A stretch of 64,000 bases of DNA, from assembly GCA_008632985.1 (NCBI GenBank), contig QPGO01000021.1, positions 62,001 through 126,000 on the forward strand. Reading direction: 5' to 3'. Source of the stretch: Psammoneis japonica (taxonomy: Eukaryota). Position numbers and translations under genes: made by a program. The notes below the pieces were generated by a model, which worked only from the letters and a program-made list of their open reading frames with translations, did no database searches and was not told the origin of the DNA. Shown one piece after another: positions 721 to 58,242 of the stretch (within the stretch, counting starts at the first letter, position 1; the number at the start of each line of letters is the position of its first letter).

Positions 721-3700
721 CTACGGACGAGCTTTCTTTGCCAACCGCGCAGAACGCCTGTAACCTACTGAAGGGGCGTCCTTTGTGGACGGAGCATTGG
801 AGCGGTTCCTTTGACCTCTGGTTGACGCGGCAGGCTTTATTGACTCGCCATCACTTCCGCGTTTCGCTTTACCTGAAAACCCGGCCTTTCGTTTCTTGGG
901 TGACAATTCCTCTTCAGATTCTAGCGCACTACTCCTGAGTTTTGACGTTCGTTTTGTATCCTTTGGCGTTGGCTGCTTCGTGCTGACCTCGTCCTCTTTG
1001 ATTCTCGATCGTTTTGTAGCCCTCTGTTTTTTCCTTGGCTCGTTTTCCTCCTCTGAATCTGATGCATGCTCCGCACGATGTCGCGCTATGCTCGGTGTTC
1101 GCCTCGAAGTCGTTGATCTAGTGGATGTCGCCTTACGCTTCTTCGGGGAAGATGATTCTTTTTCGTCGGATGTTTGTTTCTTTTGCCGATGTCTTGGGAG
1201 CGGTGGCCTCGATGATTTGTCTTTGTTGTTTCGGTCATCTTCGTCAACTTCTCCTTTGTTTGATTGCTTCGCTGCAGGAGCCAGACGCCTGTTCAATCTT
1301 CGTGTAGGAATGCCTGACTCCTCATCCCCATCAACATCTTCGACAGCATCCAGCTTCCCCATCTTACCTAGATTCTTCGCGGTGGAACCCTGGGAAGCTT
1401 GCGACATGCGCGCACGTATACGAGCTGAACTACGGGTTTTCACTGACGATCCTGGATACACCGGTTTAGCTTTGCGGCCACTGGACCCGGTAGCGGAGGG
1501 TTCATTATTTTCTCTTGACGATTCTTCTTCGACTCTAGACAGATTACGTTCATCTTCCTCTCGTGGAGTTGATGTTCTCCTCGTCCTTCTCGTCGAGCCA
1601 ACACTCGATGCCACAGATGGAGCAATGGACGACAAGGCGGGAGACGCCCCAGTCGTTGATGGAATTTCGATAGACTTAACCTGTGGTGAAAACTTGTGGC
1701 GCTCGTCGCCACGATCTAGAGATGGAGTGCCTCGAGAAGGCTCATCAATAGAAGCTCTGTTGTCGTGTGACCGAGTGTGCATGGCAGGTGAATCGAGTAC
1801 ATTAGAATCATCAATGGATCGCGTGTGAGCGCTACGATCTTCTGATTGAGTGCCTTGAGAAGGCTTATCAATAGCACCTTTGTTGTCGTGAGACCGAGTG
1901 CGCATGGCAGGTGAATCTAATACATGAGGGTCATCATGGGATCGTGTGTGAACGCCACGATCTTGAGATTGAGTGCCTCGAGCAGGCTCAACAACAGCAG
2001 CTTTGTCGTGAGACCGAGTGTGCATGGCAGGTGACTGAGGATCATCATGGGATCGTGTGTGAGCAACACGATCTTCAAATTGAGTGCCTCGAGAAGGCTT
2101 ATCAATAGCAGCTTTGTCGTGAGACCGAGTGTGCATAGAAGGTGAATCGAGTACATGATGATCATCATGGGATACCTCGTTCTTGCTGTTGTCCTCCGCT
2201 TGCGATCCAGTGTCGCTTCTTTCAACTGAATCGGCAGCTTCACCTGCTTCCTGGTCATGTGATCGAGTGTGCATGGAAGGTGTGTCAATGACTCCCTGCT
2301 GCTCAATTTCATTCTTGGGATGAAATACACCAGATTTTGTTTCAATAACATCTGAATCGTCGTCTGCCTCGGGATCAGTACGAGACCGCATCTGCGTGGA
2401 TGACGAGTCCAAAACTAGTACTTCACCCTGTGGGGCTGCGCTCTGTATCGGTGATCCAGCATTGCCTCGCTCACCTTCATCTTTATCTTCCGCTGCGTCT
2501 GCACCATGAGACCTACTGTGCATGGAAGGTGAGTCGTCCAGGACTTTCTCATGCTTGGGTTCGCCCTGGGTAGGAGAGACACCCGCTTCTGTTTCGGCGC
2601 TGTCTCCACCTCCTGCTGCTTCTGGATCACGCGACGAATCAGAGGCTTCATCCTGTAGGGTCTCACTCTTCATTGGTGAGTCAGTATCGCTTCGTTCACT
2701 TATGTCTGTGTCGTCAGCTCTTGGGTCATGAGATCGAGTGTGCATGGCCATTGATTCAGAGGTTTTCTCCTGCATGGTTTCGTTCTGGGTGGGAGAGAGA
2801 AGCACTTCTGTTTCTGCTATTTCTGTATCGTCGGCTGATTCGGAGTCACAAGACCGAGACGGAATCTGAATGGCAAATGTGTCAGAGGCTTCATCCTGTT
2901 GCGTTTCGCTCTGTGTCGGCAAGACAGCATCGCTTCGTTCACTTCGGATCGCGTATTCAGCTTCTGCGTCATGAGATCGAGCGTGTCTGGAAGGTGCGTC
3001 GACAGCTCTCTCTTCCTTAGCTTCGTTATCGGTCGGTGACAGACCCGCTTCTGGTTCAACGCTACATCCACCTTCTCCTTCTTGATCACGAGACGGAGTA
3101 TTCGTAACAGGCCAGCCAGAGGCTTCATCCTCCTGGGTTTCGATCTGCATCGGCGATTCAACAACGCTTCTTTCGTCTACGCCTGTGTCTTCGGCTTCTG
3201 CACCATGAGTTCGAGCGTTCATGGAAGGTGTGTCAAGGACTTCATCCTCTATGATTCCATTCTGAGGTTCGGGACCCGCTTCTGTTTCAGCAACACCTGC
3301 ATCGTCGGCTGCTTCGGGATCGCCAGACACAGTCTTTAAAGGCGAGTCAGAGGCTTTTCCCCGTTGGGTTTCGCTATGCATCGGTGAGTCGCCAACGCAT
3401 CGTTCACTTCCTTCTGCGTCGCTGGCTGCTTCTGGCTTCGGTGAAAGATCCGCTTCGGTTTCACTATCTGTATCGTCAGCCACTTCTGGATCACGAGATT
3501 GAATACATTCGTAGGCGCGAGATACTCCGACTCTTTCTGCTTCGTCAAATCTGTTTGCGATCGACTAGCATCGTTTTCGACCATTCCCGGCAACGCCTTG
3601 CTGTCGTCAGATGAGACAGGAGGTTTTGGCGACGAATGAATAACACTTGTGTCACTGCGTCTCGTTCTCTCTTGGCTTGCCGTTTCAGATTCAGAAGTAT

Positions 3701-12160: not shown

Positions 12161-13789
12161 ATGTAAAACCATAAAGATAGCTGAAAGAATAATCTCCTGC
12201 CACACTCGTGCCTCTCGCTAGCGCAACACGAAACTTTTTGTGAGAGTGGCTAGAGAAAAAAGGCCATTGCATTGTCATTCATTCAGACTCCAGTTGAAGA
12301 AGAAAAAGGAAAGGAGAGAGTCTGGAGGGCCAGTCAGTGGAGGTCAATCCATCCAGAAGCCTGTGGAGACCTGACGTCACCACACTCTCTCTCTCTGCTT
12401 TCTGCACCTGGCATGTCACAACAATGTCACCAATGACCTCCACATCAATGAACTTGAGGGTGCCCATTCCCACACCAGTGGTCAAGGTGGATGAGACAGT
12501 GGTTTGTTGATGAGTGCAAGTTGGGTCATGGGCTGGGAGAACCGGGGGTTGGGAAGAATTGCAAATCAATGTTTTGGTTGGAAAACCAAAACACAACAAT
12601 GCAAAACAAGCCAAACACTGTCTTTGTGTGTGGCACCAAATTGTTGACAATCTTGTTGGCTGGTGTGTTGTTTTGCTTTATTCTGACTTTTGCTCTCATT
12701 CAAACACAGGCAGATCTTGTGGAAACTCAAAAAAAGGATGAGAGTTCTTCTCAAAGGCTTCTCAGTGGGTGACCTTCATTTCTGAGCACAGCAGTCAGAA
12801 AAGGCACAAAATGTGGGGCATGCATGGCAAGAAGGAGCTTTGCTTGCCATTGCACTGGTGCATGGGGAGTCAAGTGTGGCTGTGACACCAGATGCACTCA
12901 GAGAAAACTGCTCTTGACTGGAGAAAAATCAATTGGCACAACATGTGGAGCAAGTGTGACCACTCTTGTTTGCTGTGCGGCATGCCCAGGAAATTCACAC
13001 AAGCATTCAAGAAGCTTCCAAGCATGGAGCAACAGCCTCCAAGTGCAGCTCATCAAGAGCTGTTTGGGCTCACATTTTTCTTTGTGCAGCAGCAATCAGA
13101 GCACACAGGGTCACAGCAATGAAAGGCAGCAACTTGCAAGTCACACACAACACAAAAAAGATCATGGCTGTGAAAGCAGCAAGTGCCAGCTCATGACAAC
13201 AGCAGGTGGGTTTTTGCTGCAGAGCACAAAGCACATGCCAGCTGTTCTTGCTGTTGTCACTCTTGCTGCCTAAATTGCCTGTGTTTTTGACTCTGTGCAA
13301 AGGCAACAACTCAGTTTTCAAAAGTGCACACCCAACTGGCACAACACAGGTTTAGAGTGAAGAGTGCAGCCACTGTGATCTGTGAGGAGTTTGGGGGTGC
13401 ATGCAGCAGCACACCTGCTGTGCAGTTGTGTGAGAGGCATTTGCCAGCATCTGCAGCTTGCTTGGTTGCTGTTGTTGGCTTTGTTTTGTTCAGGTCTTTT
13501 CACCAGCCAGCTGATTTTGAAAATTGGGCTGCAGTTCACACACAAGCAAACTGTCAAAGAAGAGTTTTTTCAATGGTTGCTTGTGGCATCAACCAAAAAT
13601 GATGCATCAACAAAGCAGCAAAGTTGGGCCAAAAAGCACTCTGCCTTTGTGTCCAGCATTGAAAGCCCAGCTGCTGCAGCAATGTGCACAATTCTGTGCC
13701 CACACTTTTTGACAAGTCCAAGAGTGTGCCACCTGCTGCACAGGTGCAAATGACTTGAATCAAGCTGTGATTTGTGATTTCTCTTCTTC

Positions 13790-15600
13790 AGAAGGAAAGC
13801 ACACTCATGGCTGACAGCTTCCCCCATGGTCCATCAGCAGATGTGTGAAATCCTGCTTTTCCCAGCAGCTCAACAGCTGTCTTCCAACTCACCTCCTGCC
13901 ATGCACCAAATTTGCCTTTGATGCTTTGGTTGAAGCCATGCCATGGCACGGTGCTCCTGAGCAAAGGGGAGCAAGGTTGTGCTCTTTTTGTTGGTGACCA
14001 TTTCTTGGCTTTTTCCCTGAAGTGCACAGAGGCATGATGTGCCAACAGGAGGCAGCTGTAAAAACCCATCATCACTTCTTTGTTGCACACAGCACAGGTC
14101 CAATCAATTAAAACAAAAAGCTTCTTCATCTTTGTGCAGAGCACAATGCCAGCCAGATGTGCTGGTTCAAGGTGGAACATGTTTTGGTGGCAACCAAAGT
14201 CTGGCACAGCTTCAATGTTCTTCCACACACATGCTGTGCAATTTTCTTCTTGCTTGATTGAAAATGAGTCAGACAGGAGGGTGTTTGAAGCCAGGGTGCC
14301 CCTTGGTGAAATCAAGAGGGCAGGGTCATCTGTGCCACCACTTTTTGGATTTCACAAACAAGTTTCTTCTTTCCATCAAGGTGTGGGTGAACTTTGGCCA
14401 AGTGTTCAAGGTGAGGAGCACACATGCCTTGTGTTTGATGTGTCACATCTCACCAACACAGGATGCTTTGGTGCAGCAGTTGGAATCATTGCTGACATTG
14501 TGAACCACACCATGGGCCCCGGCTCCAATCATTGTGCTGACAAACCATTTTTTCCTCCTGTCAAATGACTGCAATGAAGGCCTTTTTGATGCTTGGAAGA
14601 AAGCAGGTTTCACCACCTTCACACCCAAAGTTCCAATGTTTGTCAGCTGGAGCTTTCGTCAATTCCCCACACTGCCAAGTTCAAATGTTTTGCCTCAGCA
14701 TGCTGACAATGCACCTCCTCCATCAGAAGCATTTTGGCTTTGTGTGGGTGTGGGAATGCCCAGTGCCTGATCTCAAAGTCAATTTTTCAATGGGTGTTTG
14801 TGAGATGAACAACACTTGTGTGTTTGTGTTCTCAATGAATGTCTTCTCTTCCATGTTCTTGGCAAGCTTTCTTTTCAATGCTGTCACCCATTGGAACAAG
14901 TGCCAGCAGCACTCTGAGAATGGCACACACTGTTGGTGGGACTGAGCCTCTTTCCTGATCCTTGTCATTCGGAAACATGAAAGATGCCGCCACTTCAGAC
15001 TCACCTCCTTGCCAGGACAGAACCCCACCAGCCACCTCTTTCATGCCAGCTTTGCAATCTTCTGATGTTGATTTTGAGTTGTTGCAAGTCAGTGGCTTTT
15101 GAGTTTCAGCTTTGCAAATTGACTGATTCCAAAACCCAGTGTGACTTGCCCCAAGTCCTCACTGGGATCAGTGTCACCTTTGACTTTCCTCTCAACTGCA
15201 TCAAAACACACCATCTGTTCTTTGCATGGGCTTGGAATTGTGGCTCCTTGTTCCACAAATTCCTTGACTTCTGAGGCTGCAAAAAACCTCCTTGCATTTT
15301 GTTCACCAAGTGACAAAGGTCAAGTGCTTGCTGAGATGTTTTTCTCATCTTTTCAAGATTTTCTGTCAAGTGCTTTGCTCAATCCCTTGTCAGCCACTTG
15401 ACTGCAACCAAGGACTTTTTTGAAAACCCAACTGCCAGCAGATTTTGTGGGCAGCTTCTGACAACAAGCCAAAGCAGGGTCCATTTTGACCAACACAGGT
15501 CTGGTTCTGTCATGTTGACATCAGTTGTGGTTTCTTGTTGTTTCAGGTTTGATGCCAGCATTGGTGCCATTTGCAACTTTCTTTCTTCAAATGTTGCTTT
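13790..15600 (-). pseudogene. Degenerate protein kinase-like gene
   Basis: IGAGAHGVVH (G-loop, expected GxGAYGVVY) at ~14500-14530 is followed by CCTKAS and HIKHKACVL (subdomain II/III-like), with VLIDWTCA (subdomain VII-like) further on. Interrupted by stops and frameshifts. Confidence 0.5.
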
Positions 15601-15965
15601 TCACATCAGCAGCTGTTCTCTCAAGACCCTCACATGCACAGAAAGGAGCTGATTTTTTTTTCTGACCCTGGGCTCTCTTTCCAACAATTGTCAGTGCCTT
15701 TTAAAGCAATTGGAAAGTGAGAGGAAAGGAAGTGTCTCATAGTTTGTCTGTGCAATTTGGTGAGGACAATGGGCAGAACAACACTTTGGTCATTGCTCTT
15801 TTCACATGTGTCTGGGGATTGTTTTTGCCAGGGAAGGGTGCCCAGCCAGCCATTCTCTGGCACATTTTCCTGTTTTCATTTTGTGGTTCATGCACCTTGT
15901 CATGAGCTGCTTCACACTGACAAGCATTGCAACAAAAAGTGACAGATGGCTTGTGCCATTGTTGG

Positions 15966-16173
15966 CATCCAGGTGTGGGCCATGGCGGTTGGTGTCATTG
16001 TCCATTGTCACAGTGCATCAAGATTGCTTGTGGGCAACCAAGCTGTTTCAGGGTTCTTAAATCACATCCAGGTGCGGGCCGTGGCGGCAGGTGTCATTGT
16101 CCATTGTTGCGGTGCATCAAGCACAAGGGGAAGATTGCTTGTGGGCAACCAAGCTGTTTCAGGGTTCTTAAAT
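15966..16173. repeat. Tandem duplication of ~100 bp
   Basis: CATCCAGGTG...GGGTTCTTAAAT occurs at 15966-16062 and 16065-16173. Confidence 0.9.
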
Positions 16174-17899
16174 TGCCAAGAATGATCACAAAATTGATTG
16201 CAGTTGATCACAAGTTCCCAGCACAAATGGTGATTGCAACAGGCATTTTTGCCACACATGGTCATGATTGCAATTGTTTGTGATCAGACTGCTTTCAAAG
16301 CACATGTCATTGTCATGATGGGCTCCATTTTGCTTCACCTGTGGTCTGCAGTTTGCCTGCTGTCTTGCCCGGGTGGTGCTCCTGCATGAAGAGTGGCCCT
16401 GCAAAGTGCGCCCCTGCCAGGGAGGCATCAACATGGCTGTGATTTGATTGCAGAGTTGGTGCAATCACTTGCCATTGTGATGAGGCAATTGTGCATTCAT
16501 GGTGATGCAATGTCTTGTTGTAAACTGACCATGACTCAGAACTTTGTTGTGAGTCTCATTTTCATTCACAAGTGTTCAGTCATGAGCAACAGGACAACCC
16601 CTGCTCATCACCCAACTCTGCTTTGCTCTCCATTGTGAGTGTCTGCACAACAACCATTGCACAGGCACTTTGCACACCCTGCCTTGGGGTGCATGCAAGT
16701 GTGCATGAAGAACAGTCGGTGCATGCCTCACAATGAAGAGTGGTCCATGACAGCAAATCTGGCTCCACTTCCAGAAGATGACCTCATGATGTCAAGTGGG
16801 CATTTCTGAGATCTCTCAAGTTGGGAGTGGGTGGGCACTGCTTGTGGGGACATGCATGTGGCACAGTCAATGGCGCCAGCCAGAAATTGATGAGGCAAAG
16901 CTTGCTTTTGTTGGCCCCTGACCCCCAGCCCAAGGCCAAAATGCAAGGCAGCAATTCTCAGCTGTGACAAGCTTGGAGGCTCAAGCCCGGGGTCTTGACC
17001 AAGTGCTCTTTAAGAAAACAACATGCCTGGTGATTGTCTTGCTCATGCACTGGTCCTTCCAGCAGTGGCAGCTGAAGGGGTCATGCTCTTTGTTGTTTGC
17101 AAACTCACCTCATTGACCTCTTAGGTCCAGCAGAGGCTTTTTTGCTGCCAAGCTGCTCTGGTTTCTTCAGATCATCTTGAAAATGACAACTCTGATTCTG
17201 AAGTGCATTTCCTTGGAAGACATGAGTCAAGAGACGCTTGAGGTGCTTTTCAATGGTTCCTTCTTGTTTTCCAGACTCGAGGCTCATTGATTTGGTCTCT
17301 AAATTGATTCCAGCAGAACTGGTGTGATTGATTCTTGCTCATGGAAGAATTTACAAAGGCGCGCCAGTTGAAACTTTCATTTTCCACATTTTTGGTGCCT
17401 TCTGTGGTGTGTGTGCACAATGCACTGTGCTCAAAGAACAGTTGCAAAGGAAAGCAGAATGAAGTGCAAAATGTGGAAATTGTGAGATCAAATGCTCTGT
17501 GATTTTTGGCTTCTCTGAATGAGTTCTCAATGGGCCAAAGCTTCTGCACTGCTTCTGCAGACAAAAGGCCTTTTGGAGAATGCAATTGTGAGACAACAGA
17601 TTGTCTGGACATGATTGCTGTTGACACGGAAGATGTCAACATCGTCAATTGATTGCATTTGCAATTTTTGACTTCCGATCAACTCTGTGTGATCGTTCTG
17701 TCCTTTGTGTGCATCCACGACTGTGGTGCGATTGACACACAAATGACATGTGATCACAGACATGCATGTGACAGTCGCACACTGCACCCGGTCAAATGCA
17801 CAGCGCCTGCCCCGCGACTGACCCAACCCACCCACAAGTTTGAAATGGCCATTGTCAAGCAACGCTTCTTGCCCCAAACTGACCCACTCAAGGGAAGCT

Positions 17900-19860
17900 G
17901 ATGCTTCAAGTCCATGACTGAAAAGAAGCATGACTTTCATTTGACATTTTCACAATGTGGGCTCCAGCCAAGTTGCGCCACCGACCAAGGTTTGAAATGT
18001 GTGCAAAAGCAAACAAAGCAAACTCAAGAGCACACAACGAGTCAAAACAAAAGCCCAGAATCACCATGGCAACACGAGTTCTGGTCCCCTTCTCACACAG
18101 CAACCATTGCTTTGACTGCACTCATGCTGACAATGACAGCAGTCATTTCAAAATCAAGCATGGAGCACCACTTCTGAGTGCTGCTGCCATGGCAATGGCA
18201 AAGGAAAAGACAGTCGAGGCAGCTGAAAAGTTGGGGCTGACAATGTCCAACAAGACAGATTACATTGCCAGCCCACACAGTGGCAAACACGCTCCACGAG
18301 ATTCATGGTCAGTGTGGCAAACTCCCCAGAATCATTGCGCTTGCTGCATCCATCTTCCAGCACCAGAGGGCCGAGATTCAAGGGCTGCAATGCACACTCG
18401 GGTCATCCAAAGCTTTGCTGCAAAGGAAGTCCTGTGCACTCTGAGGTGTGGAACAATTTTTGCCCGTAAAATGAGAAGGACGGGGTGAAGTGCAAGAGCC
18501 ATGGCTGCAAACAATTCTTGCCTGAGGATGCATGCCTGCTCTGAAACCACCTCCTCTCAAGCAACACAGCACAGGGCCTCCAGTTGTTCATGACAATGCT
18601 CGCTGCCACCTGCCTCTTCTTCCATCAAGATGAGTTCAGCAAGACAGAGACATCCAATTTCCTCACAACTCTGACATTTTGACGGCAATTGCCCACTTTG
18701 TCATTTGTGGATTTATCTCCATGTGAGAGTAGCACAAAGGGTGGGTGTCTGTTTCCAAGTGAAAAAGAGCTGGCCAACATGCCAGAGGACGGGGTGAGCA
18801 AAACCAAGATTGAACATTGGAAAGTGATGGATGCTCTCTAGAAAATGTTTCGCACAGTGTTGAACAAGCCCAATGTCAAGCTTGGAACACACAGCTTTTG
18901 CAAGATGGCTTGCCTTTTCTGTGCATGGGCTGACACAACAATGGCAGATGTCATGAAGAGTGCTTGCCACAAGACCTTGGCGCAAGCAGAAAAATGCCGC
19001 ATGGATGCGTTGCCGCTGAAGGACATCGGCGCTGTTCATGATGATCCTGTGGAGTGTGTCCCTTCAAAGTGGAAGTGTGTCCTGCAAGAAAGCGAAGGCA
19101 ACATTGAGTCAGATGAACGCCCCTGCAGTTCCATGCCAAAAATTGATCGGCCAACTCACCTGTGATTTCATTTTTCGAAAGTCAATGACATCTCCAAATC
19201 ATCCAGGCGCAATGGACACATTGCTTTTTTGGTTGATCAAGCAATGAAGTGGTGCAGGGCTGGAGACTCCAATGCCATGCTGGAAGATGTTCTCTTGACA
19301 CTGCCAATCAAACAAGCCTCTCAAGTGCGGCAAGCCTGGAAAATGAAACTGCTCAATGAAATTGCAAGTGTGAGCGAGTGCATTGTTGCACCTGCAGCTG
19401 CCAGTGTGCTCACTGGTGACAGCTTGCTTGTCAAATCAAAGTCATTGAACAAAAAAAGAGAGGATCTGATGGCAATGACCTTGAAGACCGCCACAAGCTG
19501 AAGAAGAGCAAAATGGAGATGGCAGAAAAGCTGGACATTGTTGTCAAGATTTGGGAGCAGCACCATGAGCAAGGCCAGCCATCAGTGACAGAGGGAGCCC
19601 AAAAATTCATCCAGCAGCAGGCTCCACCAATTGTTGGTTGCTTCCAAAACCACTGTAACTCTGACGCGGAACGGTTCTGCCACAAGTGGAAAACACTCCA
19701 ACACACCAAGTTCCCTTGCAAGGGAAAGGCCAATGAACCCTGTGCCGGATCGTCTGGGGATTGGGAAACTGCACATGCAGTGAGCACGACAGGTGATAAA
19801 TGTGAAGTGCTTTGCATGCACAATTTGTCGTGCACATTACTTGCTTCTCTTTTGCCGATG
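17900..19860 (+). mobile_element. Tyrosine-recombinase transposon remnant (Crypton-like)
   Basis: ORF 18845-19165 reads GTHSFCKMACLF...VMKSACHKTLAQAEKCR. This reverts by single CG>TG or TA>TG changes to GTHSFRKTAYLF...SARHKT...EKYR, the HxxR, H and catalytic Y motifs of tyrosine recombinases. No RT is visible nearby. Boundaries are approximate. Confidence 0.65.
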
Positions 19861-22214: not shown

Positions 22215-23916
22215 GATTGTTTTGATGCGTGCTTTGAATGATGTTTTGGTTGTATATTGGAAATTCGAAATTCTCAGACGTGCACCTTCAATCTTGCTTC
22301 AATCAATCATCACGCAGAGATTTGAATCGACTGGTTGGACCAAAAATTCAAACGAAGAACAGAGTTCTGATCTTTTTTTCCGACGTCACGTGCTTCTCCT
22401 TCTGCCTTTTGTTGCAACGATCAGAAGTGGAACAATCACGATGACTTCAGCCTTCAGCTGGTCATCAAGCACAACTGCACAAGCAGGTGAACTCAAGACC
22501 AAAAGATCAGCTGCAGACTGCAGAGCACTCTTCAAAAAGAACGGAGAATCAGCAAGAGAGAGAATTGAAAATGAGTCGAGCATCAGCTTCTCTTCTGCTG
22601 CAATCATGTTGCTGCTTCTTGCTCATTCTACCCAATGGACATGTGTTTGTGCCGAGAACCAGTCGAAATTGCAGTTTCTCTCCAGCTGCATCACCAACTG
22701 TGTCAGCGATGATTCACAGTGTTCAGCGCTCTTTTACAATCCATTGGAGTTTGAATCGGCAGAAGCCAAGGAGGCACACATGGAATTGGCACAAGAACCC
22801 CAAAAGTCTCACTGTGTCAATGAACCTGGAATTGGACCCATGCAGCATGGTGTGTTGTCCAGTTTACCTCTGTGGATGGAAGATTGTGTGAGTTGTTCGA
22901 AATGCCAGACTTGCAAAGTTGGTTGTCAAATCTTTGTTAAGACTTGTCGGTCGTCACTGTGTTTTGGTCATTTTCAACTTTATTTTCCTGACAGCATTTT
23001 GTTTGACCCACCAAAACACAATGCAGATGGAACTTCCTGGACTGCAGCATGTCATGGAGGTTGAAGATCCCCAACTGGTGAATCTGGCATTGAAGATTGT
23101 GGCTGGGCCTCGCCCTTGGCACCGTGGGCACATCAACAGAAAAGACAGTGATTGTGATGAAAATTTAGAGACCACAGATTCGCCATTGGAATGCCAACAC
23201 AAACATCAGATCATCCACTGGACAAAGAAAGCGGATCTTTGGAGATTGGAGTTCAAGCACTGGGACGCTTCAGCGTGGTTGAAGGCTTGTCAGCATTGGC
23301 AGGGCTGGGCAAGCAGCCATGGATGCTGGGGAAGTGCTGGCACTGTTGGTGCTGAGCCTGACATCACAAGAGATGGGTGACAGGTTTGACAGATGCTGCA
23401 GATCCTTTCCATTGCCAGCACATTTTGCCTGTGTTGTCTGCATGGTGGAGAGAACAAGGGGGGTTCTTTCTCAGGCATCAAAGCACTCATCACCACCAGC
23501 GTGGGGTTGGATGATGCTGCCCATGAGCTCCAAGTCAGCATTTGTGGTTGGGCCATGTGGGGGTTGGTGCAGGTGGCAGGCAGGATGATGAAAGTCATTC
23601 AATCGCAGCAGAGTGTGTGCCAGGAGTGTGGCAGACTCACAAGTCCTGCAAGGTTTGTCAGAGATTTTCTTGCAGCTTGGGAACACAAGCCCATGGGAGA
23701 TGCAGCAGGCAGCCTGAAACTCCAAGTGAGTGGAGCTCTCCTGTTGGCAGCTTTTGAAACCCATCGTCGATGGCACATTTTCTTGTGCAGGGGAAGTCCT
23801 GGTGTGCAACAGTTTGGTGCTGGGGGGTGTCTGCAGTCTGGCCCAAGTCAAGACTTCCTTCTGCATTTGAGTGTGCTGTGAGTGCACAAAGCTGCCAGTC
23901 AAGTGTGCTCTGCATC

Positions 23917-24161
23917 TGACAGAAAATGAAGATGACTGGGTGGAAGAAAACAATGGCTCCTTGCTGCTGTCTAAACAGCAGATGAGTCTCCGTGCAGAGA
24001 CCGTCACAGGAGCCAAAAGACTGGTGTCGTGACATCGGCACTGCTGTCATCATTCTTGTGAGCCATGTGGCTCAAAAGCAAACTACATCGCATGACGCAC
24101 GTGGAACTAAGAGCACACACAATCATGTGTGACAAACTAAAATCTTGTTCAAATCCTGTCA
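23917..24161 (-). repeat. 3' LTR of copia element
   Basis: Gapless match to 30892-31136; adjacent to the PPT. Confidence 0.95.
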
Positions 24162-24268
24162 CTCCCCAGTTTGCTTGAGGGGTCAACAGCGATGGATTCG
24201 AAGTCGGATTGGTTGAAAGCCTTGGGGTCGAAGTTCCAAAACATTAGAGGACAAAGGAGGTTCCAGAC

Positions 24269-27200
24269 TCAGTGGCCCCAATGCTTGCTGAGGATGTCAG
24301 CCGGGTTGCGAGAGCCTTTGATAAAATGAAACTCGAGGAATCCGGAGGCAATCGCCTCACGCACACGATGGAACGAGAGGGTGGTGTGTCGCTTGTGCAA
24401 CTTGGAGTGCGGGATGGTGGCACTGTCCACAACCGACTTGTTGTCCCCAAACATGCAACATGTTTCACGAATGGGGATGCCAAGGTGACGCAAAGTGATG
24501 CGCAGATCAATGATCTGCTCAACACATGTCCTTGCGGCAACAAACTCTGATCCATGCGTGGCAGTCTCGACTGTTGCTTGTTTCTCAGAGAACCAATCAG
24601 CCAAGAAACTTGTTGAGGAAATGGAGGATGCCAGTGACAGAGCACCCAGTGAGCATGCAATGGAACAAGTTCACATCAACGTGGTGTGTGGTGGTGACGA
24701 ACTTGCCAAGTGGCTCGGGCGCATCTTGTGGGAGCAGCTCTTCTACCTCCCCACACACAGATTGAGCCCAGTCATGCACAGGCTTGGGGAGGTCCAAACA
24801 GTCGGGCTCCTCAGCGCGCACTCGGAGGGCACCATGATGCATCTTGGAAAGGAATCCACAGATGCATTTGGCACGGTCCAGGTGGCCTTGGCAGGGCACT
24901 GCACGGAAGCTGGACAGGGACATGACAGCCGCAGTGATGTCAATTCGACCCAGAGATGCGGCCCATTGCAGGGATCCAATCAAGGATTGGAATTGGTGGA
25001 TGCCATCCGGTTTGAGTAACTCGGAAGTGTCGAGCTCAGGGTGGTCACCCTTGTCAAGGGGTGAAAGCACATCAGTGCACGGCTTCTCCCCAAAGAGGCA
25101 CGCGCAGTTGTCAACCATGCGCTCAATGTGCTTGCGGGGAGCAAGGCACAGGGTGCCATCTGGGTCACGGGTGAAGTTGCAGCCAAGATGGAACTCCAAT
25201 GGTCCAGTGCCCTTGAGCTTGAACTTGCACTTCTCCGTGAGGGTGTCTGCAAAAGCCTGGGGGTCCTTCATGGCAAAGGCCAGGTCGTCCACATGCACTG
25301 CCACGCGTTTGCAGTGGTCACCATTCCTGCACAGCCAGATGTCGGGTTTGGCCTTGCATGGAAAGAAGCCTTCGGCACACAAGCAATCGGCAAAGCGTTC
25401 ATGCCATCTGAGTCCGGAGCTGCGGAGTCCACACAAAGCCTTGTGGATGACAAGGATGTGTCCTTCCAGGTCACCAAACTCGGGGCCTGCTGCCATGTGC
25501 AGTTTCTCCTTGGTCACAGCTTCAAGGCAGGTGCTCCCAATGTCAGTGGCCCAGGTCTCTAGTTTGTTGAGTTCGGCCAGGAAGATCATCATTCGCAGGC
25601 CACAAAGAGACACTGCTCCAGAATGGACACTGTCAACGGGCACGTCTCTGAGGTGTCCATTGGCAACAAGCCTTGCTTTGTGCCGTCCGTCATGTTTGAC
25701 GTCGTAGACGAGGTGCACCCGGATCTTCTTGTGTCCTGATGGAGCACTGGAATCCTTGTGGTGTCCGCAGTCATGGAAGACCTCGCACTCATCAAGCTGA
25801 GTCATCTCGAGGTCTGTTGTGTCTCCCCACTTGCAGTTGCGCTCATCAAGGGCCATGGCATGCTTGCAGTCCTGTGGCACTTCACACCCGCACTTGCATT
25901 GTGGCGTGGTGCGAAAGGAGCGTAACTTGGCTTGGTTGGCCATGCAGAGTGGCTTCTTCTGGCAAAGGGCCATCTTGCGAAAACGTCTCCATCCTTCGGT
26001 TTCTAGAAGGCCGTGCTCATGCATGTAGATGGCACAGGTTGCAGGGTCGTCCTTGGCAATGATGACAAGGGGTTCGGACGTGATCTCCCCATTCTCCCAT
26101 TCAAGCATGACGTTGCAGCTTGAGCCTTTCCAAGATGGATCATGGGGTTGCAATGGTCCTTCGTGTGACACAATGCATTGGAACTTCCAGAGGGTGGTGT
26201 CCTCGTCTTCTTGCTCAATGTGGTGCATGATGTCATTGCAGGCTGGGACTTCCTTGCATTCGTCATTGTTGATGGAGCAAATGAACTTGACCAGTTCAGG
26301 GTTGCCTCCGATTTTCCAGTCGTGGTCCTCAACGGCGTTGACAATGCGGGCTCTGTGGCGTTGGCCATCCTCTTGTGGCTTCATGAGGAAGGTGCATCCA
26401 ATGACATCCTTGGGGTCAAAGACTGGCATTTTGGGCATTCTGATCGCCTCCCCATCTGGTGAATCTGGCAAATCCTCGTAGTCGTGCCGGGATTTAATGA
26501 CAGGGTCAGCAGATTTCTTGTCAGGAGGATCAAGACACAGGTTTGGAGCAGACGGATCATGGGCAGAGCGCATGTTGGAATGGCAGAGAATCTTCTGAGT
26601 GTCGTCAGAAAGAATCTTGAACATCATTTGGTGACCAACGTGTTTGGCGATGCCAACGAAGCGACCACGCAATTCACGGGATTCAGACGGCCAGTTGGAA
26701 TCATCCAGGTGGCAGCACACGGGTTCCCACCATTGAAAGCGGAGGAGTGGGCTGATGTTGGGAGTGGAGCTGGACAGCACCTCGGTGGGGGTGCGCCAGT
26801 GGAGCTTGGCTGATGCCATGTGGTTGAGCACAAAGCACACGTGCATCAGGGCGAGCAGCCAGGTGTAAGCCGGGGACCCAAAGCGATCCATGATGGTGTT
26901 GGCCATGGTCTTCACAGTTTGGTGGCAGTGTTCAGCAAAATTCTGATGCTGGTGGTGAGGCTCGCTTTGCCAACTAGAGATGAAGAGGGTGCGGAGGATG
27001 CCAAGAACCTTGTTGCTGATTTCAACCTGAGCACGGTCGCTGATGAGCTTGGATGGGGCACCTCAGTTGCGAATGTTGTCCTCGAGGGTGTTGACAAATT
27101 CTTTGTCAGTTTTGGTGCCATGCACATCAGTGACGAGAGATTCCATGCCGACAAAGAGCTGGGCACTGGCGCAACCAGAGTCAACAGCAGGGGTGTTGGA

Positions 27201-28577
27201 GCAGACCGTGTCGGTGGCAACGGGCTCATTGCGTCGGTGGACATTGAGAGCCGGGTTGGGTGATTTGTGCGCCTTTTTCAGGTGCGTGCTGGCTGGCATG
27301 CGGGTGCACTGCGTCGTGCAATCAAAAGTGCGGCGGACAGTGTCCTTTGGGAGAAAGCCAAAGCAGGGGTGGAGGGACTCAAAGTTGGGATCCTTGGGAT
27401 TGAGTTGACGCGTTCCAGCCCCAGGTGGGACTCCGTGTGACATTGGGCCTGCAGAATTCTACGTACGAGCTCCGCAGTGCGAGAATTTAATTGATGGATG
27501 TGTTTGTCTTCAACATCAAATAAACGGCCAAGTTTGTGGTGCAATTGTGCCTCTTGCCACTCGACGTCTTTGCAAATGCGCCTGCCCTGCACAATTCTTA
27601 AGACATTGTAGAATCGCGCTGTAACAAAAAATGTCAAAAGTTGTTGGATGGATCGCTCAACAAGTGTGCCGTAAAAATGACACAAAATGTCGAAAAAATC
27701 ACGTGGAAATCTGCGTGCGCGACATGCGACATGATTCAAAAAACTGTCGATGTCACAGTTCAGTGGTGCGAGGTCCCACCCAGACCTGGAACACGTCAGT
27801 TCGCGCTCATGGCATTCACAGAAGAAATCAGATGTTGGGAGCAGGTGATCATCAAGGATGGAGTCTGCAAGCACGGCATTGTTGACGACATGGCGGTGAC
27901 GACAGTCACCAAACTCATCAAAGAGGTTGGTGGTCAAGTCGTCTTGGAGCTCAGACACGGCATCATGCCACTTTTCATCATCGGTGAACTGGCGGTCAAG
28001 GACAGATGGGTCCCATGTGTCATCACCAGTGAGAATGACATGCGGCAGAGTGTCCCATTCAGCATCGGTGTGCAGTCGCATGGCAACGCACGGGAGGCTG
28101 GCTTCAATGTTGATGGGAATGATGCATCCGTCAACAGTGGTGATGCACTGCAGACCATTGGGAACCTTGATGGACCGATCGTTGACATCGTGTTTTGCAC
28201 CGCTCGAGCTGGCCGCAAGAGTGCATCGTCTTCCCCTTTCCAGTGCAGGTGCACTGGTGAAGGATGGCAATGGCAGGGCCACATTGCGTGTGGATGACAC
28301 CACCGGCAGTGACAACAGGAATGTTGACCAGTTGATGATCGTCGACACCTTGGACACAAACATCATCACCAGCGACACCACCGTTTGCACCACGATCCAT
28401 GAGAGCACCTTTGCGAGTTGACTTGTGGGTCAAGGCAGAGCAGACGATGTTGTGGTTGTTGACGCGATGGCATTTGTGGCCGTTGATCTCAATGTCAATG
28501 TCAATGGGCTTCGCATCGGAGTGGACGGAAGGTGCGGATCCGGGTGGTTTCTCACCAGAACAGGCGGAAGGAGGCAT
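24269..28577 (-). pseudogene. copia pol (protease, integrase, RT, RNase H), frameshifted and MITE-interrupted
   Basis: Motifs LMDRGANGG, EPVATDTV, HKARLVA, KALCGLRSSG, VHVDD, VETATHGSEF, MFGDNKSV and NPADILSK. Confidence 0.92.
27407..27797. mobile_element. 391-bp MITE inserted in copia pol (4-bp TSD AGTT)
   Basis: Imperfect TIRs GACG(C/T)GTTCCAG....GGTGGGAC; AGTT at 27403-27406 and 27798-27801. Excising the element restores the pol frame (...HERELNPKDP...). Confidence 0.88.
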
Positions 28578-28894
28578 TCAGGTGCCAGGAGACATTGCAA
28601 GTTGCCTGGTGGCAGAGGCTTGCGCCTGGTGAGATGAGCCAGAATGGGGTTGCCATTGGCTGCATCGGCTGTGGCGTCAGATTGTGCGGAGGCTGACACA
28701 AGATTGTGAGTGTTGGCGGACAAGTTGACATCGCCATCGCTGCCAATGCGGAGGTCGTGCATGTTGACCGCCATCGAGTCGTGGCAGTTGGCAAGAATGA
28801 TGGCCTTGGTGGATTGGGGCAAGGTGTCCCAAATGCACTGATGGTCCGGCAGGATGCGACGCCATTGTTCCTTGGTGAGGGAATTGCCGCGAGT

Positions 28895-30079
28895 TCACGC
28901 AGCATGAGCTTGGATGATGTCAACATCACCGTCGATGTCGAAGGATGCATCATCATCAGGGTCGTCAGGGACCAGGTCATGTTCGTAGATGGCACGGCGT
29001 GGAGCGCGAGGAGCCGTCTTGGCGGTGAACGTGCTGTCGTGCTGTGCTGCAGCAGAAAGCAAAAGTCCACAGTGCTCCTCGCAAGAGAGTCCCTTGCCAT
29101 TCTGCATGTGGAGCTGATCGGCCTGATTCTTCACCGAACAGAGTTCCTCGACAGGATGTGCGGCGTTCTCAAGCATGACATGTTTCTGGCCAGCAGAAAA
29201 ATGGTCTGCACCTGGGACAAGAGCTTCATGCTTGCGGAGCTGGTCCTGCCAGTGGAGCATGAAGGCATGAGTGGAACCTTTCCAGGTGCCATCACCAAGG
29301 CGAGCAGTGGCAAGGTACGTGAGAAGGGTCGAGGACTCCAGGGATGCGCGAGTGGAAGCAAGGGCATGCTTGGAAAGGTCACGACACACCGCTTGAGCAT
29401 CAGAGGAGCTGACGTGTTGACGAACAAGAGCCTTGCCTTTGTCATTCTGCAAGATCCGTTCGAGTGCGGCGAACATGTGCTTCTGTTGTTCAGCAAACAA
29501 GGCCTTGTCCTCAGCTGTGGAGGGCTTGTGCGTCGGGTCAAGAATGCGTGCGACATCTTGGGAGCGGGCCTGTGCAATGATGGAGGTGTGCCACGTGTGC
29601 CACTGTTTGTCGGACTTGAGGAGTGCGAAGGTGAGTGGGTCACGTTTGATGCCTTGTTTAAAGTCATGCATGGGATCACGTGGTTTGGGTGGCAACAAGC
29701 CAGGAGTGGGAGCAGATGGTGCTTTGCCCATGGAGAGGGACGCCACATGCTCAGGACTAAGACGACAGTTGGTGAACTCCTCTTGTGTGAACAATTGAGG
29801 GTCATTGCTGACATCCGCGCTGCCACGCGCTTTTGCCATGTACCGGCTAATCAACGCAGCTGTCTGTGCTTTGTAACCACGTGGCAAAGGCATTTGATTG
29901 GTTCCGTTGTTGCACACAAGGGCATCCAATTGCATCGGAGTAAAAGTGACAAGGTCCTGATGCAAATCGATTCCATCAATGTTGAGAGCAGAGCACAATG
30001 GACTGTCTGCGGCTTGATTCAGAACAGTGCCTAGAATGTGCTCGAGGCCATCGATTTGTTGTTGCCTGGTGAGAACCAT
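28895..30079 (-). pseudogene. copia gag
   Basis: The 394-aa ORF contains FKQGIKRD...W..W, typical of diatom copia gag, and lies upstream of the protease. Confidence 0.8.
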
Positions 30080-30891
30080 GTTGCAACCAGGTGGATGTCG
30101 GAACTGGCTGGAGTCGGAGGGTGAGCTTGAGGTAACTTGAAACTTGACTTGAATCTTGACTTGATGTCTTGGACCACCTCAAGAGTCAGAAGCCGCCGGG
30201 CTGTGATGTCCCGTTCGCAGTTGAGTGCTGAGCTTCCTGTCTGGTCTGCAGAGTTGTGCCGGCATGTCCGAACCTGCAGCTGGCAACGCTTTTGGTTGCT
30301 TGAGAGCGGAGCAACGGGTTAAAAACCCCTGCTGACAAGCCAACTGGAGGTGGACAAGACCTCCGAACCATTCTCATTTTATGTCGGTTGGATGACCTGA
30401 TCAGGCCGGCCAAATTTGGCACTGTGGAGGGACGAACAAATGCAGGAAATGCACCCTTGCCCCAACGTGGGCTGTGGTCATGAATTGCTTCCTCTCACAG
30501 TTGTCCTCATGGACCTTGCAGGACTGTAGAAGACCAGCAATCTGGTGTGGATACGAGGCGGTAGACTTGGCGTGCGCAGAGCAGAGCCAGAGTCAGGGAT
30601 TTATGTCATGTGCGCGTGAACGCGTGCGGATGCATTGGTGGGATCCGCTGTGAGGAATCCGGAATCTCAGATGTCTGAGAATTCAGGAATTCCTGGCCAA
30701 ACAAATGTCTGTTGAACAAATGTGTCCAACGATGGGAGGTGTCGGATAAATCCAAACATGCAGATTTAATCCAGCATCCAGCAGTGAAGAAGGCAGACAC
30801 ATGCTTCCACCGCCAACAGTGCGCGTCGTCGAAAATTTCTCGATGACAATGATGAACACTCAGTGGACAACAAAGAGCAAGACTGTCAATC

Positions 30892-31136
30892 TGACAGAAA
30901 ATGAAGATGACTGGGTGGAAGAAAACAACAACTCCTCACTGCTGTCTAAATGGCAGATGAGTCTCCGTGCAGAGACTGTTGCAGGAGCCGAAAGACTGGT
31001 GTCGTGATGTTGGTGCCACTGTTGTCATTCTTGTGAGCCATGTGGCTCAAAAGCAAACTGCATCGCGCGACGAGCGTGGAACTAAGAGCACACACAATCA
31101 TGTGTGACAAACCAAAATCTTGTTCAAATCCTGTCA
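30892..31136 (-). repeat. 5' LTR of copia element
   Basis: Gapless match to 23917-24161; followed by the TSD GCATC. Confidence 0.95.
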
Positions 31137-32568
31137 GCATCACTGCCAGACAGTCAGTCTTTGGCACTCCACCAAGTTTGCCCAGATTGGAGGCAATGTG
31201 TCACTTCATCACACAACTTGCACTTGCGTGAGCTTGGTGTGGTTGCCCCAATTGCCTGTTTGCCTTTTTCATCATCTGGGTTGCTGTTGCTGTTTGGAGG
31301 TCATCTTCTGGACAACACCGCTGTCACTGGGTGGAGTTGCTGTGGGTTCTGCAGACCTTGTCCCAAGTGTCCTGGGATGTTGCATTCCACCTTGTGGTCA
31401 CAAAAAGAAGCAAGTTGGTGCCTCGTCAAGTGCAGACTGCAGCTCAGTGCTGGCTGCCTGTTGCACTGCACACCACTCACAAGAAATCATGAAGAGGTGT
31501 GCTGCTGGCTCTGGCTTTTTGGCCACTGTGGCTGCTCCACACGGTCATCAAGATTGCACCTCTTTGGGGTGTGGAGCTTGTGCAAGAAGCAGCATTGCGA
31601 ACGCACAGGGCGCACACAAAGCACTGTGAGTTTGTGCCTCTTGTGAGCCCCCACAGCACTTGCTCTTGCAGGTGTGAAGAAGGCATCCCAGAGTGGCCTT
31701 GAATGACCCAAGAGCACTTTTGGCAGGTGGGTGCTAAAGTGCCCTGGGGTGCCAACTGGAGGGAGACATCATCAAATTCCACCAGGGTGAGCTGCCCCCC
31801 AGTGAGGTCCCCTGTAACCTTGCAGGTGCTGTGACCCCAAAAGGCTGAGTGAGCTGGGCCCACTGCTGCAGCTGGGCAGGTGGGGGGGCACCTGGCACAG
31901 CACTTGCACCTGCCTTCATCTGCTGCATTTTGACCACAGCAGTGTGCAGTTCTGGCAATTGGCAAGTCACAACTTGACACCACTGCCACTTGCCCTTGTG
32001 GGGGCCCTGGGCCATTTTGCAGTTGTCTTTGCACCAGAACAAAAAAAATCCTGTGTTGGCTTGGCACACCCCCCTTGGTGCAGATCCCTTGCTGCTGCAG
32101 TGTGACAACTTCAATGTCTTTCCATGACTGGAGAGCTGCTTTGCTTGTGCTTTTCTGGCAGCAGGCAGAGAGGTGGCAGCGCCTGCTCCAGCTCCTCCTG
32201 GCACGCAGTCCTCAGTGGCGCTGGCAGCATGGGTGCTTTTGGGAGGTGGCAGGGGCATGCTTGTGCCATGGGTTCCAGCAGCAAGTTTTGCCCTGGCAGC
32301 ATCCAAGCACCAGCACCAGCCAGTGCAGCACTGAGATGAAGTGATGTGCTCCAGCCCCAGGTGGAACTCCACATGACACAGGCCCAAAGAATTCTGCACA
32401 CAAGCTGTGGACACATGAATGATCACCAACAAAAAAGAGGCAATTTTGTGGGTGCAACTCTCCTCTGCTCTTGAAGCACTTCATTTCTGGTTTGCCTAGG
32501 TGCATTTTTCAAACATTGAAAAATGTGCCCAGCCCATTTCAGCTTTCACAAATGAAGAAAATAAAAGC

Positions 32569-32813
32569 TTTTGGCTTTGCAAAACAGGGAGCATGAGGAA
32601 ACAATGTTGCAGACAAAGATCACATGCAGAAACACATGCGCGTGACACGCAGCGCCATCCAAAAACCTCTTGTGTCACAGCACAGTGGTGCCTTTTGGCT
32701 TTGCAAAACAGGGAGCATCAGGAAACAAAGCAGCAAACACAAAGATCACATGCAGAAACACAAGCGCATGACATGCAGTGCTGTCTAAAAACCTCTCGTG
32801 TCACAGCACAGTG
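32569..32813. repeat. Tandem duplication of ~120 bp
   Basis: TTTTGGCTTTGCAAAACAGGGAGCAT...GTGTCACAGCACAGTG occurs twice. Confidence 0.85.
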
Positions 32814-32957
32814 ACGCAAGGTCCTGCCTGGAGCCAGAGCACGTCAGGCATGCTTGTTTCCCCCTGGCCTGCTGCTGGCTGCTGCTGAGCATTCACACTG
32901 TGCAGGCAGCTTGTGAGAAGCAGCGGCCGTTGCTCTGGAGCTCGTGCAAGAGAGCGC

Positions 32958-33522
32958 TCAAATTGTTTGGGAGGTGAGAGTGACCTCAACGGTTGGACAG
33001 GGTGGGTCATTTTGATGACTCATCTGCTGCAGGTTGAGAGAGACTTCTCGTCAAATTGCGCGAGCTGGGTCATCGCACGTGCAAGCAACAAGCAAGCAAA
33101 ATCTCATGGCAAAAAGAAAAGTTGCTGCGAAACTCTGGCGAAACTGCGAACTGCGGCGAGAAATGTCATCCGCGAACTGCGAAGACGACTGATCAAAGCG
33201 ACATGTTTTCGTGCAAACTGCACTCAAAGCGCAAGCAAAAGAACAAAAATAAATCTACTCTAGAGTAGAGAGTGGCATTCAAATTGTTTGGGAGGTGAGA
33301 GTGACACCACCACGGTTGGACCATGGGTCACGATAGGTGGTCATCGCACGAGCGCGCAAGAACTACCAACTTGAAACAACTTGAAACTCGCGGGAAAAAA
33401 GAAGCTGCGAAATAATAACCGCGAACTGCTGCCAAATAACGGCGAACTGCAAAGACGACACTGATCAAAGCGACTTGTTTTCGTGCACACTGCACTCAAA
33501 GCAAAAGAACATGACAAATAAA
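32958..33522. repeat. Diverged tandem duplication (~250-300 bp unit) straddling the right edge of island 2
   Basis: TCAAATTGTTTGGGAGGTGAGAGTGAC at 32958 and 33279; both copies share GGTCATCGCACG and CTGATCAAAGCGAC...CTGCACTCAAAGC. Confidence 0.8.
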
Positions 33523-50316: not shown

Positions 50317-51315
50317 TGCCACAGGGGTGGATTGTGTGTGGAAAGCAAGTGAGATTGAAGATGGGCAGTCAGGCGCGCGCGGAACACATCATTTTCAGTT
50401 TGTGACAGGTTCTTTGGTTGTCACCTGTGTTTCTCACAAGTTGAGTCCATTGTCCTCTTGAGGCATGAGAGGAGCACAGAGGAGGTCTGTCCCAGGTGGC
50501 TCTGAGAAAAGAAATGTGCGCCACCATCAACTTTCCTGTTCTTGTGACAAGGAGCACTGACAAAAGAACTCCAAGAATCAACCAGAGGGTGCAGATGTCT
50601 CCATTCTTTCCAGCTTCATGCAACGTTGCAACAAGCATGCATCACAAGCTTCAGGGTGCATCTGGGGGACCCAAAGCTCAGGTCTGCCTCTTTTGGGCAG
50701 GAGCTGGGGGTTTGTCAAACAGCAACCAGGCTCCTTTGTGCATGGAGTCATGAACATTTCCACAAGAAAATTGTGTTTGTCCTTCTGAGTTGTCAAGTGA
50801 CCACAACAATTTTGCTTCACAGCTTCATGGTTGGTGTCTCCCGCACAAGGCCAATCTGTGCACAAATTTGTCAAGTTTGTGCAACCAAATTTGTGCACAG
50901 CATTTGGGTTGTGCCCATGCACAAAATTTGTCCCCAAACAGGAACACACCTCAGCAAGCAACAAACAGAAAACAGAGCACCTTGTCACAGTCATTTGAAA
51001 AAAATGTGCGGATGTGTCCAAAACAGAATGTCCAGTTTGTTGGCACATTTCGCAATCATCTGAAAAAAATATGCAATGAAGGTGTCCAAAACAGAAAATG
51101 TTCAATTGTCAGCAAATGAGAATTTGAGTTTTCCGCTGTGCCAAACACCTGTGATGACAACACAGGCATGGGAGAAAGTGATGTGTGGGGGTTGGGGGCA
51201 GCATCGAGAAGCATGGGAAAGGAAGGGGGCTGCTCGTGTGACTCCAGCATCAATGTGCCAAAGAGTTGTCAACATGATGAGTCACATTAGAATGATCTAA
51301 GCCAGAGGCAATGCA
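50317..51315. other. TpA/CpG-depleted degenerate sequence (remainder of island 3), unassigned
   Basis: Dinucleotide signature continues until ~51315; no confident domain. Confidence 0.6.
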
Positions 51316-58194: not shown

Positions 58195-58242
58195 GACAAT
58201 GATGAATCCGTCACACTGGGTGACCGCAAACCAGCAACAAAG

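Follow-up and report, generated by a model that had tools for sequence, protein, structure and literature searches.

Tyrosine codons of a copia retrotransposon in a diatom genome are erased by TpA-specific, strand-symmetric transitions confined to blocks of mobile and degenerate DNA

A stretch of 64,000 nucleotides from the diatom Psammoneis japonica (contig QPGO01000021.1, positions 62,001 to 126,000; hereafter the window, to which all positions refer) carries a complete though inactivated Ty1/copia long terminal repeat (LTR) retrotransposon on its minus strand, which extends from one target-site duplication (TSD) to the other at 23912-31141 and has lost nearly all of its conserved tyrosine codons. 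Its reverse transcriptase belongs to the RVT_2 family (PF07727, E = 1.7e-19, Pfam), and this match, together with the 5-bp TSD and the TG...CA LTRs, identifies the element as Ty1/copia. The following parts were recognized.

23912 to 23916, no strand: left copy of the TSD, GCATC, read directly, with the same 5 bases at both outer LTR ends.
23917 to 24161, minus strand: 3' LTR, 245 nt, with plus-strand termini TGACAG...CTGTCA, a direct repeat whose exact ends were read.
24162 to 30891, minus strand: copia internal region with the polyprotein in three frames, from tblastn with the intact relative P0001 and from RVT_2.
24269 to 24670, minus strand: C-terminal frame of the polyprotein with ETATHGSEF and KHWGH, from translation.
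24597 to 27062, minus strand: 821-amino-acid (aa) stop-to-stop frame with the presumed end of the integrase, the reverse transcriptase and the start of RNase H, in which HVDD replaces YVDD, from translation, Pfam and alignment.
30892 to 31136, minus strand: 5' LTR, 245 nt, from LTR comparison and the sequence as read.
31137 to 31141, no strand: right copy of the TSD, GCATC, from the sequence as read.

The internal bases adjoining the 3' LTR (24162-24167) read GGGGAG on the element strand, which looks like a polypurine tract. The element is colinear with intact polyproteins of ~1,900 aa from public metagenomes; Pfam recognized RVT_2 alone in its polyprotein, as it did in P0001, and a 1859-aa relative aligned colinearly over the whole length. 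The closest relatives share 52-65% protein identity with the element, and the metagenome scan returned none above 65%. One copia-type polyprotein of 1886 aa (P0104) is labelled by its source as belonging to a metagenome-assembled genome of Bacteroidota; it is most likely a eukaryotic contig that was binned into a bacterial genome. When P0001 was compared by tblastn, the polyprotein of the window was found to run through frames at 27833-30079, 24606-27431 and 24215-24607, and hence to contain two frame changes. In-frame stops lie at 28897, 28432, 27065 and 24271, and all four are TGA.

Three translated segments of the window were aligned with 60 of the 120 listed relatives (520 matches in all), and a column was regarded as conserved when at least 80% of the 60 intact relatives had the same residue. 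Tyr was kept in only 2 of 39 conserved Tyr columns, compared with 556 of 672 columns conserved for all other residues (Fisher p = 2e-24). Cys now stands in 18 of the 39 columns, His in 13, Phe in 3, Ala in 2 and Arg in 1. The 821-aa frame contains 4 Tyr, 43 Cys and 50 His. Mean contents in the 120 listed relatives are 3.8% for Tyr, 0.9% for Cys and 3.5% for His, with a minimum of 2.9% for Tyr; no Tyr-poor member was found among these 120 long relatives.

The first-pass annotation of this DNA had read several strings as copia motifs in which TAY codons (Y, pyrimidine) had become TGY or CAY. VHVDD, KALCGL, IGSTCLEA and EKLHMAAGPEFG were located in the minus-strand frame 24597-27062, and ETATHGSEF and KHWGH in the minus-strand frame 24269-24670. 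The majority sequences of the 60 relatives at these places are VYVDD, KALYGL, IGNAYLEA, EKVYIIAGPEFG, ETATYGSEF and KHWGY, with Tyr in 46-60 of 60, so the possibility that relatives natively carry His or Cys there does not hold. Because the intact relatives carry Tyr where the window has Cys or His, the direction of change is from TAY to TGY or CAY, as had been proposed. The annotation was also right to count 4 Tyr in the long copia frame, although its length of 772 aa runs from an internal start and the stop-to-stop frame measures 821 aa, and it was right that a 598-aa helicase frame at 58243-60039 contains no Tyr at all.

A 947-aa host-type open reading frame (ORF) on the minus strand at 721-3564, which includes tandem repeats of ~123 nt (1707-2173), has 0.4% Tyr and 0.4% Cys. 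The observed/expected ratio (O/E) of TpA in that stretch is about 0.3-0.6 and lies in the host range, which indicates that low Tyr alone is an unsafe marker of hypermutation.

The conserved columns of the protein alignment also served as an internal control for neighbour specificity. At codon position 2, A>G was found at 18 of 37 sites after a 5' T, and the corresponding counts for a 5' A, C and G are 2/49, 0/44 and 1/84; at codon position 1, T>C was found at 12 of 37 sites before a 3' A, compared with 0/28 and 0/27 where the 3' base is T or G. Across the other 46 related loci, 2 of 1097 cases were Tyr>Cys and 2 of 1097 were Tyr>His. Cys (A>G in the sense strand) and His (T>C in the sense strand) stand at 18:13 in the window and at 39:31 when three metagenome contigs described below are pooled with it (p = 0.40), and the O/E of AA is not lowered in the TpA-depleted blocks of the window. 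The substitutions are thus strictly TpA-specific, strand-symmetric A>G and T>C transitions. With 42 related loci of normal TA (172.5 kb) as the tetranucleotide baseline, the classes containing ATA or TAT are almost extinct in the element, ATAC, ATAG and ATAT standing at 0.00-0.01 of baseline, and the best survivors are TTAA (0.34) and CTAA (0.28); the order in two of the metagenome contigs (L031 and L036) is similar.

The two LTRs of one element are identical at integration, and their comparison dates the changes. The pair differs in 26 columns, 25 of which fall within the 128 columns occupied by TA, CG, CA or TG steps and only 1 within the other 117. By class, the mismatches comprise 8 doubles with CA in one copy and TG in the other, 5 CG/YR and 2 TA/YR differences (YR, pyrimidine-purine step) and 3 other columns, the last counted on a 248-nt repeat, with 2 of them lying inside YR columns in the 245-nt count. 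A CA-versus-TG double represents the same ancestral step changed on opposite strands, indicating action on chromosomal DNA after insertion, separately in each copy. From these small numbers we estimated that ~85% of TpA sites, ~31% of CpG sites and ~0.4% of other bases have changed per LTR copy, and the excess at TpA over other bases is roughly 200-fold.

The same change was met in public metagenomes. TA O/E was 0.13, 0.27 and 0.31 in 3 of 49 related loci, and the remaining 46 have an ordinary Tyr content. Conserved Tyr was kept at 1 of 17 columns in L031 (7 Cys, 7 His), at 2 of 16 in L036 (7 Cys, 5 His) and at 11 of 24 in L017 (7 Cys, 6 His), and no clear patches were seen in the TA density along any of the three. 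L031 and L036 share 94.5% identity, and CA/TG doubles or TA/YR singles account for 66 of the 93 columns in which they differ; the full breakdown is 20 CA/TG doubles (40 columns), 26 TA/YR, 8 CG/YR, 12 other transitions and 7 transversions.

Within the window, TpA O/E is 0.34 overall and its distribution is bimodal in a 500-bp profile. Host stretches have a TpA O/E of 0.5-0.7 with CpG near 1, and four blocks have a TpA O/E of 0.0-0.2 with CpA and TpG at 1.3-2.0. The blocks as delimited contain 136 TA in 29,700 bp, compared with 1,097 in 29,500 bp of host sequence, and the longest run free of TA measures 1,593 bp. TA density shifts within tens of bases at 12251, 19656, 22255, 33250, 48410 and 51288; the boundary at about 54089-54461 is less sharp and spans a few hundred bases. 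The loss of TpA is therefore confined to discrete blocks of mobile or degenerate DNA, with the host genes spared. The blocks, with the large frame that lies in the last of them, are the following.

12252 to 19655, no strand: TpA-depleted and almost CpG-free block without recognisable coding content, from TA positions and the 500-bp profile.
22256 to 33249, no strand: TpA-depleted block with the copia element and the older, more CpG-poor flanks into which it inserted (22.3-23.9 and 31.1-33.2 kb), from TA positions and the profile.
48411 to 51287, no strand: TpA-depleted block that starts ~40 nt inside the left arm of an inverted repeat (arm start 48374), from TA positions and a repeat search.
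54462 to 64000, no strand: TpA-depleted block up to the end of the window, from TA positions and the profile.
54742 to 60039, plus strand: 1766-aa frame split by two TGA codons, with a DUF6589-like N-terminal part and DEAD/Helicase_C domains (RecQ-like), including 58243-60039, from Pfam and homology to P0357.

The 7.4-kb block at 12252-19655 includes several 500-bp windows with neither TpA nor CpG, and its CA/TG O/E is near 1.9; it presumably represents mobile DNA of great age whose pyrimidine-purine steps have all ended up as CA or TG. Pfam searches gave no match for 10 of the 15 listed ORFs of at least 120 aa at 12-20 kb, nor for ORFs at 31.5-32.5 kb and 60.2-62.3 kb. The arms of the inverted repeat (48374-49020 and 49542-50188, ~647 nt, 87% identity) differ by 14 CA/TG doubles, 15 CG/YR and 4 TA/YR, plus 27 transversions; no coding content was identified in 48374-50188, which may represent either a palindromic duplication or a DNA transposon bounded by long terminal inverted repeats. 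The first 500 bases of the window are unusually TA-rich (69 TA, O/E 1.45), the opposite of the depleted blocks.

Host genes of the window are long and apparently intron-free over their conserved regions. For a PPWD1-like gene at 39204-41090 the named relatives are all diatoms (43-51% identity), and for a sulfhydryl-oxidase gene at 46294-47526 the nearest Atlas clusters are commonest in Bacillariophyta. Both genes support a diatom as the host, one that has no close sequenced relative and is distinct from Bigelowiella.

The frame at 54742-60039 is, like the copia element, TpA-hypermutated. P0357 (1677 aa, DUF6589 plus helicase) is homologous to both of its parts, the N-terminal one with E = 1e-30, and DUF6589 proteins form multi-copy Atlas clusters in Basidiomycota and Cnidaria; the frame probably represents a large selfish element of a kind undescribed in diatoms. 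Among longer proteins, the search for homologues of the helicase frame gave 6 weak bacterial-type RecQ or Rad3 matches only, which were uninformative, and when the frame was aligned with 50 (P0247-P0296) of 150 listed HMMER matches no column reached 60% Tyr. Opposite the 19 Tyr of four closer fragments, the frame has 6 Cys, 4 His and 0 Tyr, a comparison that is suggestive only of Tyr erasure there.

A second change affects the same blocks. At 51 conserved Arg columns of the copia alignment, Arg>Cys was found 12 times and Arg>His 3 times; counted by substitution type, Arg>Cys/Trp/stop accounts for 13/50 and Arg>His/Gln for 3/50 in the window, compared with 0/45 for Arg>Cys/Trp/stop in L031 and L036. 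CpG O/E is 0.1-0.4 in the flanks around the copia element and 0.5-0.9 in the element itself, while TpA is equally low in both, and in part of the helicase block CpG is near 0.95 while TpA is 0.07-0.10. The conversion of CpG to TpG or CpA is ordinary decay of methylated cytosine, slower than the loss of TpA and separable from it. LTR retrotransposons are CpG-methylated in the diatom Phaeodactylum tricornutum (PMC2806351), and the accessible part of that paper does not mention a TpA effect. Six metagenome copia relatives (L025, L046, L047, L048, L005 and L033) combine a CpG O/E of 0.13-0.27 with unremarkable TpA; apparently, the hosts methylate them but lack the TpA process.

The two processes leave different marks on the reading frames. 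Per 1000 codon positions, TAA falls to 1.8 in the depleted blocks from 7.5 in host DNA and TAG to 1.3 from 7.8, while TGA is slightly up; TATA occurs 0 times in the depleted blocks and 35 times in host DNA. Both the predicted loss of TAA and TAG, here about five-fold, and that of TATA are thus seen. Conversion of TA to CA or TG creates no TAA, TAG or new TGA in any frame, the sole route to TGA being an existing TAA, and the damage that it does is therefore missense only. With no stops created and TAA and TAG lost, long overlapping ORFs appear in all six frames, and the 821-aa frame survives although invariant Tyr residues, that of YVDD included, have been replaced. The first-pass view that the element was inactivated by missense rather than nonsense change is therefore sound for the TpA process and incomplete for the element, which is also disabled by the two frame changes and by a CpG-derived TGA. 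TGA 27065 sits on a column with Arg in 60/60 relatives, and hence arose as CGA>TGA by CpG decay. The C-terminal frame ends at TGA 24271 (minus strand) after KHWGH, where 45 of 60 relatives have Gln; the codon possibly passed from CAA through TAA to TGA, a stop made by C>T that the TpA process then altered.

Our literature searches gave no report of TpA hypermutation in diatoms, and the transposon described here joins a process reported once before, in the chlorarachniophyte Bigelowiella natans (Mettrop et al., bioRxiv 10.64898/2026.01.13.699255, 2026). In that study, two viral insertions of B. natans had acquired 231 de novo mutations, of which 230 were A>G or T>C and lay without exception at TpA, with the de novo rate raised ~1000-fold in some lines; discrete blocks of foreign DNA (from nucleocytoplasmic large DNA viruses, NCLDV, and virophages) show a footprint of low TpA and high CpA and TpG, and TpA-poor coding sequences are enriched for reverse-transcriptase and DDE domains. 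The two cases share A>G and T>C changes only, at TpA only, on both strands, in foreign-DNA blocks and with the same dinucleotide footprint. They differ in the host, which is a rhizarian there and a stramenopile here, and in the targets, which there are viral insertions and here an LTR retrotransposon, a DUF6589-helicase element and unclassifiable repeats. TA O/E is 0.0-0.2 and near saturation here, compared with 0.45 in the NCLDV region there; and timing was read here from LTR pairs and there from mutation-accumulation lines, a rate having been measured in B. natans only.

Taken together, our data make it very probable that the tyrosine codons were lost through a TpA-restricted A:T>G:C process that acted after integration, on double-stranded chromosomal DNA, and was confined to blocks. 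The copia element and other mobile or degenerate DNA would have integrated first. TpA steps would then have been converted from A:T to G:C in double-stranded DNA, to be read as TpG or CpA depending on the strand, within sharply bounded blocks, at about two orders of magnitude above background and nearly to saturation. TAY codons would thereby have become Cys or His codons, TAA, TAG and TATA would have been lost, and catalytic motifs such as YVDD would have been destroyed by missense change, with a slower second process turning CpG into TpG or CpA on the same blocks. By analogy with B. natans, the process may be a host-directed genome defence or a by-product of silencing, targeted perhaps through silencing chromatin or small RNA.

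Several points weigh against this interpretation. The evidence comes from assembled sequence, that of one 64-kb window and of related metagenome loci. The relatives are 52-65% identical, so that ancestral codons are inferred from amino-acid conservation rather than observed. Any single CA/TG double could stem from CpG as well as from TpA, and the number of CpG-derived doubles among the 8 in the LTRs was estimated, from the counts of surviving CG, at below 1. The extended-context preference seen in the tetranucleotides involves small counts and is a lead. Moreover, TA is its own complement, so sequence alone cannot separate damage to adenine from damage to thymine.

As to the chemistry, deamination of adenine to hypoxanthine by an enzyme of the TadA/ADAT2 type is a tentative proposal, and we would not call it probable. 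The natural tRNA substrate of such enzymes is an A preceded by U (U33-A34). TadA and ADAT2-ADAT3 tRNA adenosine deaminases, and the fungal A-to-I mRNA editing derived from them, target A after U or T, but their substrates are RNA loops, and activity on DNA in a diatom is hypothetical. The same process could also have run through thymine: T at TpA would be oxidised or otherwise modified by a TET/JBP-type enzyme to 5-hydroxymethyl- or 5-formyl-uracil and mispair with G. T>C fits all observations as well as A>G does, TA being self-complementary; 5-formyluracil promotes T>C mutation, and in some protists T is modified by preference where an A follows. We nevertheless consider the thymine route distinctly unlikely, since the sequence of the window is silent on base modification and the sole experimental precedent proposes an ADAT2-like adenine deaminase, itself without proof (10.64898/2026.01.13.699255).

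Explanations other than a TpA-restricted process on integrated DNA fare far worse. Adaptive avoidance of TA or UpA by the elements, by which they would escape a host nuclease or sensor, is the least credible of all: UpA avoidance is common in viruses, but here residues invariant in 60/60 relatives, the Tyr of YVDD and that of KALYGL among them, are replaced, each copy has changes of its own that arose after insertion, and 46 of 49 related loci have ordinary Tyr. Native TA avoidance was rejected on the loss of the invariant catalytic Tyr. Error-prone repair by a polymerase-eta-like enzyme, recruited to transposon DNA that is methylated or deaminated, would connect the A:T changes with CpG deamination, both of which affect these blocks, and polymerase eta yields A>G at WA motifs (W, A or T), its hotspot. 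A>G, however, was found at 2/49 sites after a 5' A against 18/37 after a 5' T, a ratio of more than 10 to 1 in favour of TA, the AA O/E is not lowered, and L031 and L036 lost TpA with 0/45 CpG-type changes; the WA signature was rejected because AA is spared, and we hold this explanation to be very improbable.

Scarcely any weight can be given to ADAR-like A-to-I editing of the element RNA, or to editing of its cDNA, fixed by retrotransposition. ADARs do prefer a 5' U, as stated in the B. natans preprint (10.64898/2026.01.13.699255), and the element replicates through RNA, but its LTRs, though identical at integration, hold CA in one and TG in the other at 8 sites, both strands are affected alike, with 39 Cys to 31 His, and blocks without signs of a retroelement are equally affected (12.3-19.7 kb, the inverted repeat at 48.4-50.2 kb and the DUF6589-helicase frame). 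Copy-specific LTR changes and the Cys/His strand symmetry exclude editing of the RNA genome or cDNA, and pre-integration editing by APOBEC or ADAR was rejected on these two grounds. An artefact of sequencing or assembly, for example systematic miscalls at modified bases, has to be considered as the signature was read from the assembly. It is just as hard to credit, because the bases called differ between the two LTRs although their sequence context is shared, host genes are normal only tens of bases beyond the blocks, and in another alga the signature appeared as de novo mutations in lines sequenced by Illumina. The same loss of Tyr and TA in three contigs of separate public metagenome assemblies, there without CpG decay, further argues against an assembly artefact.

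Set beside other known systems, the TpA process resembles repeat-induced point mutation (RIP) of fungi in being a post-integration, DNA-level, dinucleotide-specific transition that inactivates transposons and leaves a skewed dinucleotide composition. RIP, however, is C>T at CpA and creates TpA and stops, while the present process removes TpA, raises GC content and generates no stops; with TpA lost rather than gained and the direction AT>GC, fungal RIP was rejected. Methylated-CpG decay acts in the same blocks (Arg>Cys/His, CGA>TGA), but it leaves TpA untouched, is slower, and is absent from L031 and L036, which still lost TpA. APOBEC3 editing of cDNA and ADAR hyperediting of double-stranded RNA are likewise deaminase-driven hypermutation of selfish elements, and ADAR favours a 5' U; unlike the change described here, which is strand-symmetric and post-integration, they are strand-specific and pre-integration.

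Beyond the first-pass annotation, the present analysis adds the CpG component, the post-integration timing from the LTRs and the B. natans precedent. Because the direction is opposite to that of fungal RIP, GC goes up, stops and TATA boxes are removed, and long spurious ORFs arise in all six frames, which bears on gene prediction and transposon annotation in diatom genomes and on the reading of Tyr-free 'proteins' in marine metagenomes. If diatoms have a dedicated defence of the kind considered below, its victims would be recognisable in any genome or metagenome as Tyr-free, Cys/His-rich, stop-poor frames with a TpA O/E below ~0.2, and the tests on LTR pairs and neighbour specificity provide a simple screen for the process in any assembled genome. 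Phaeodactylum and similar diatoms are genetically tractable, so the enzyme would be identifiable if the process operates in a tractable species. The saturation in diatom transposons, together with the three environmental contigs, suggests a widespread eukaryotic means of disabling mobile DNA rather than a curiosity of one alga. It is conceivable, though we put it forward with reserve, that diatoms have a dedicated RIP-like defence that edits A (or T) at TpA in silenced mobile DNA and is the same system as that of Bigelowiella, in which case it would be an old DNA-editing immunity, shared across the stramenopiles, alveolates and Rhizaria (SAR) or older still.

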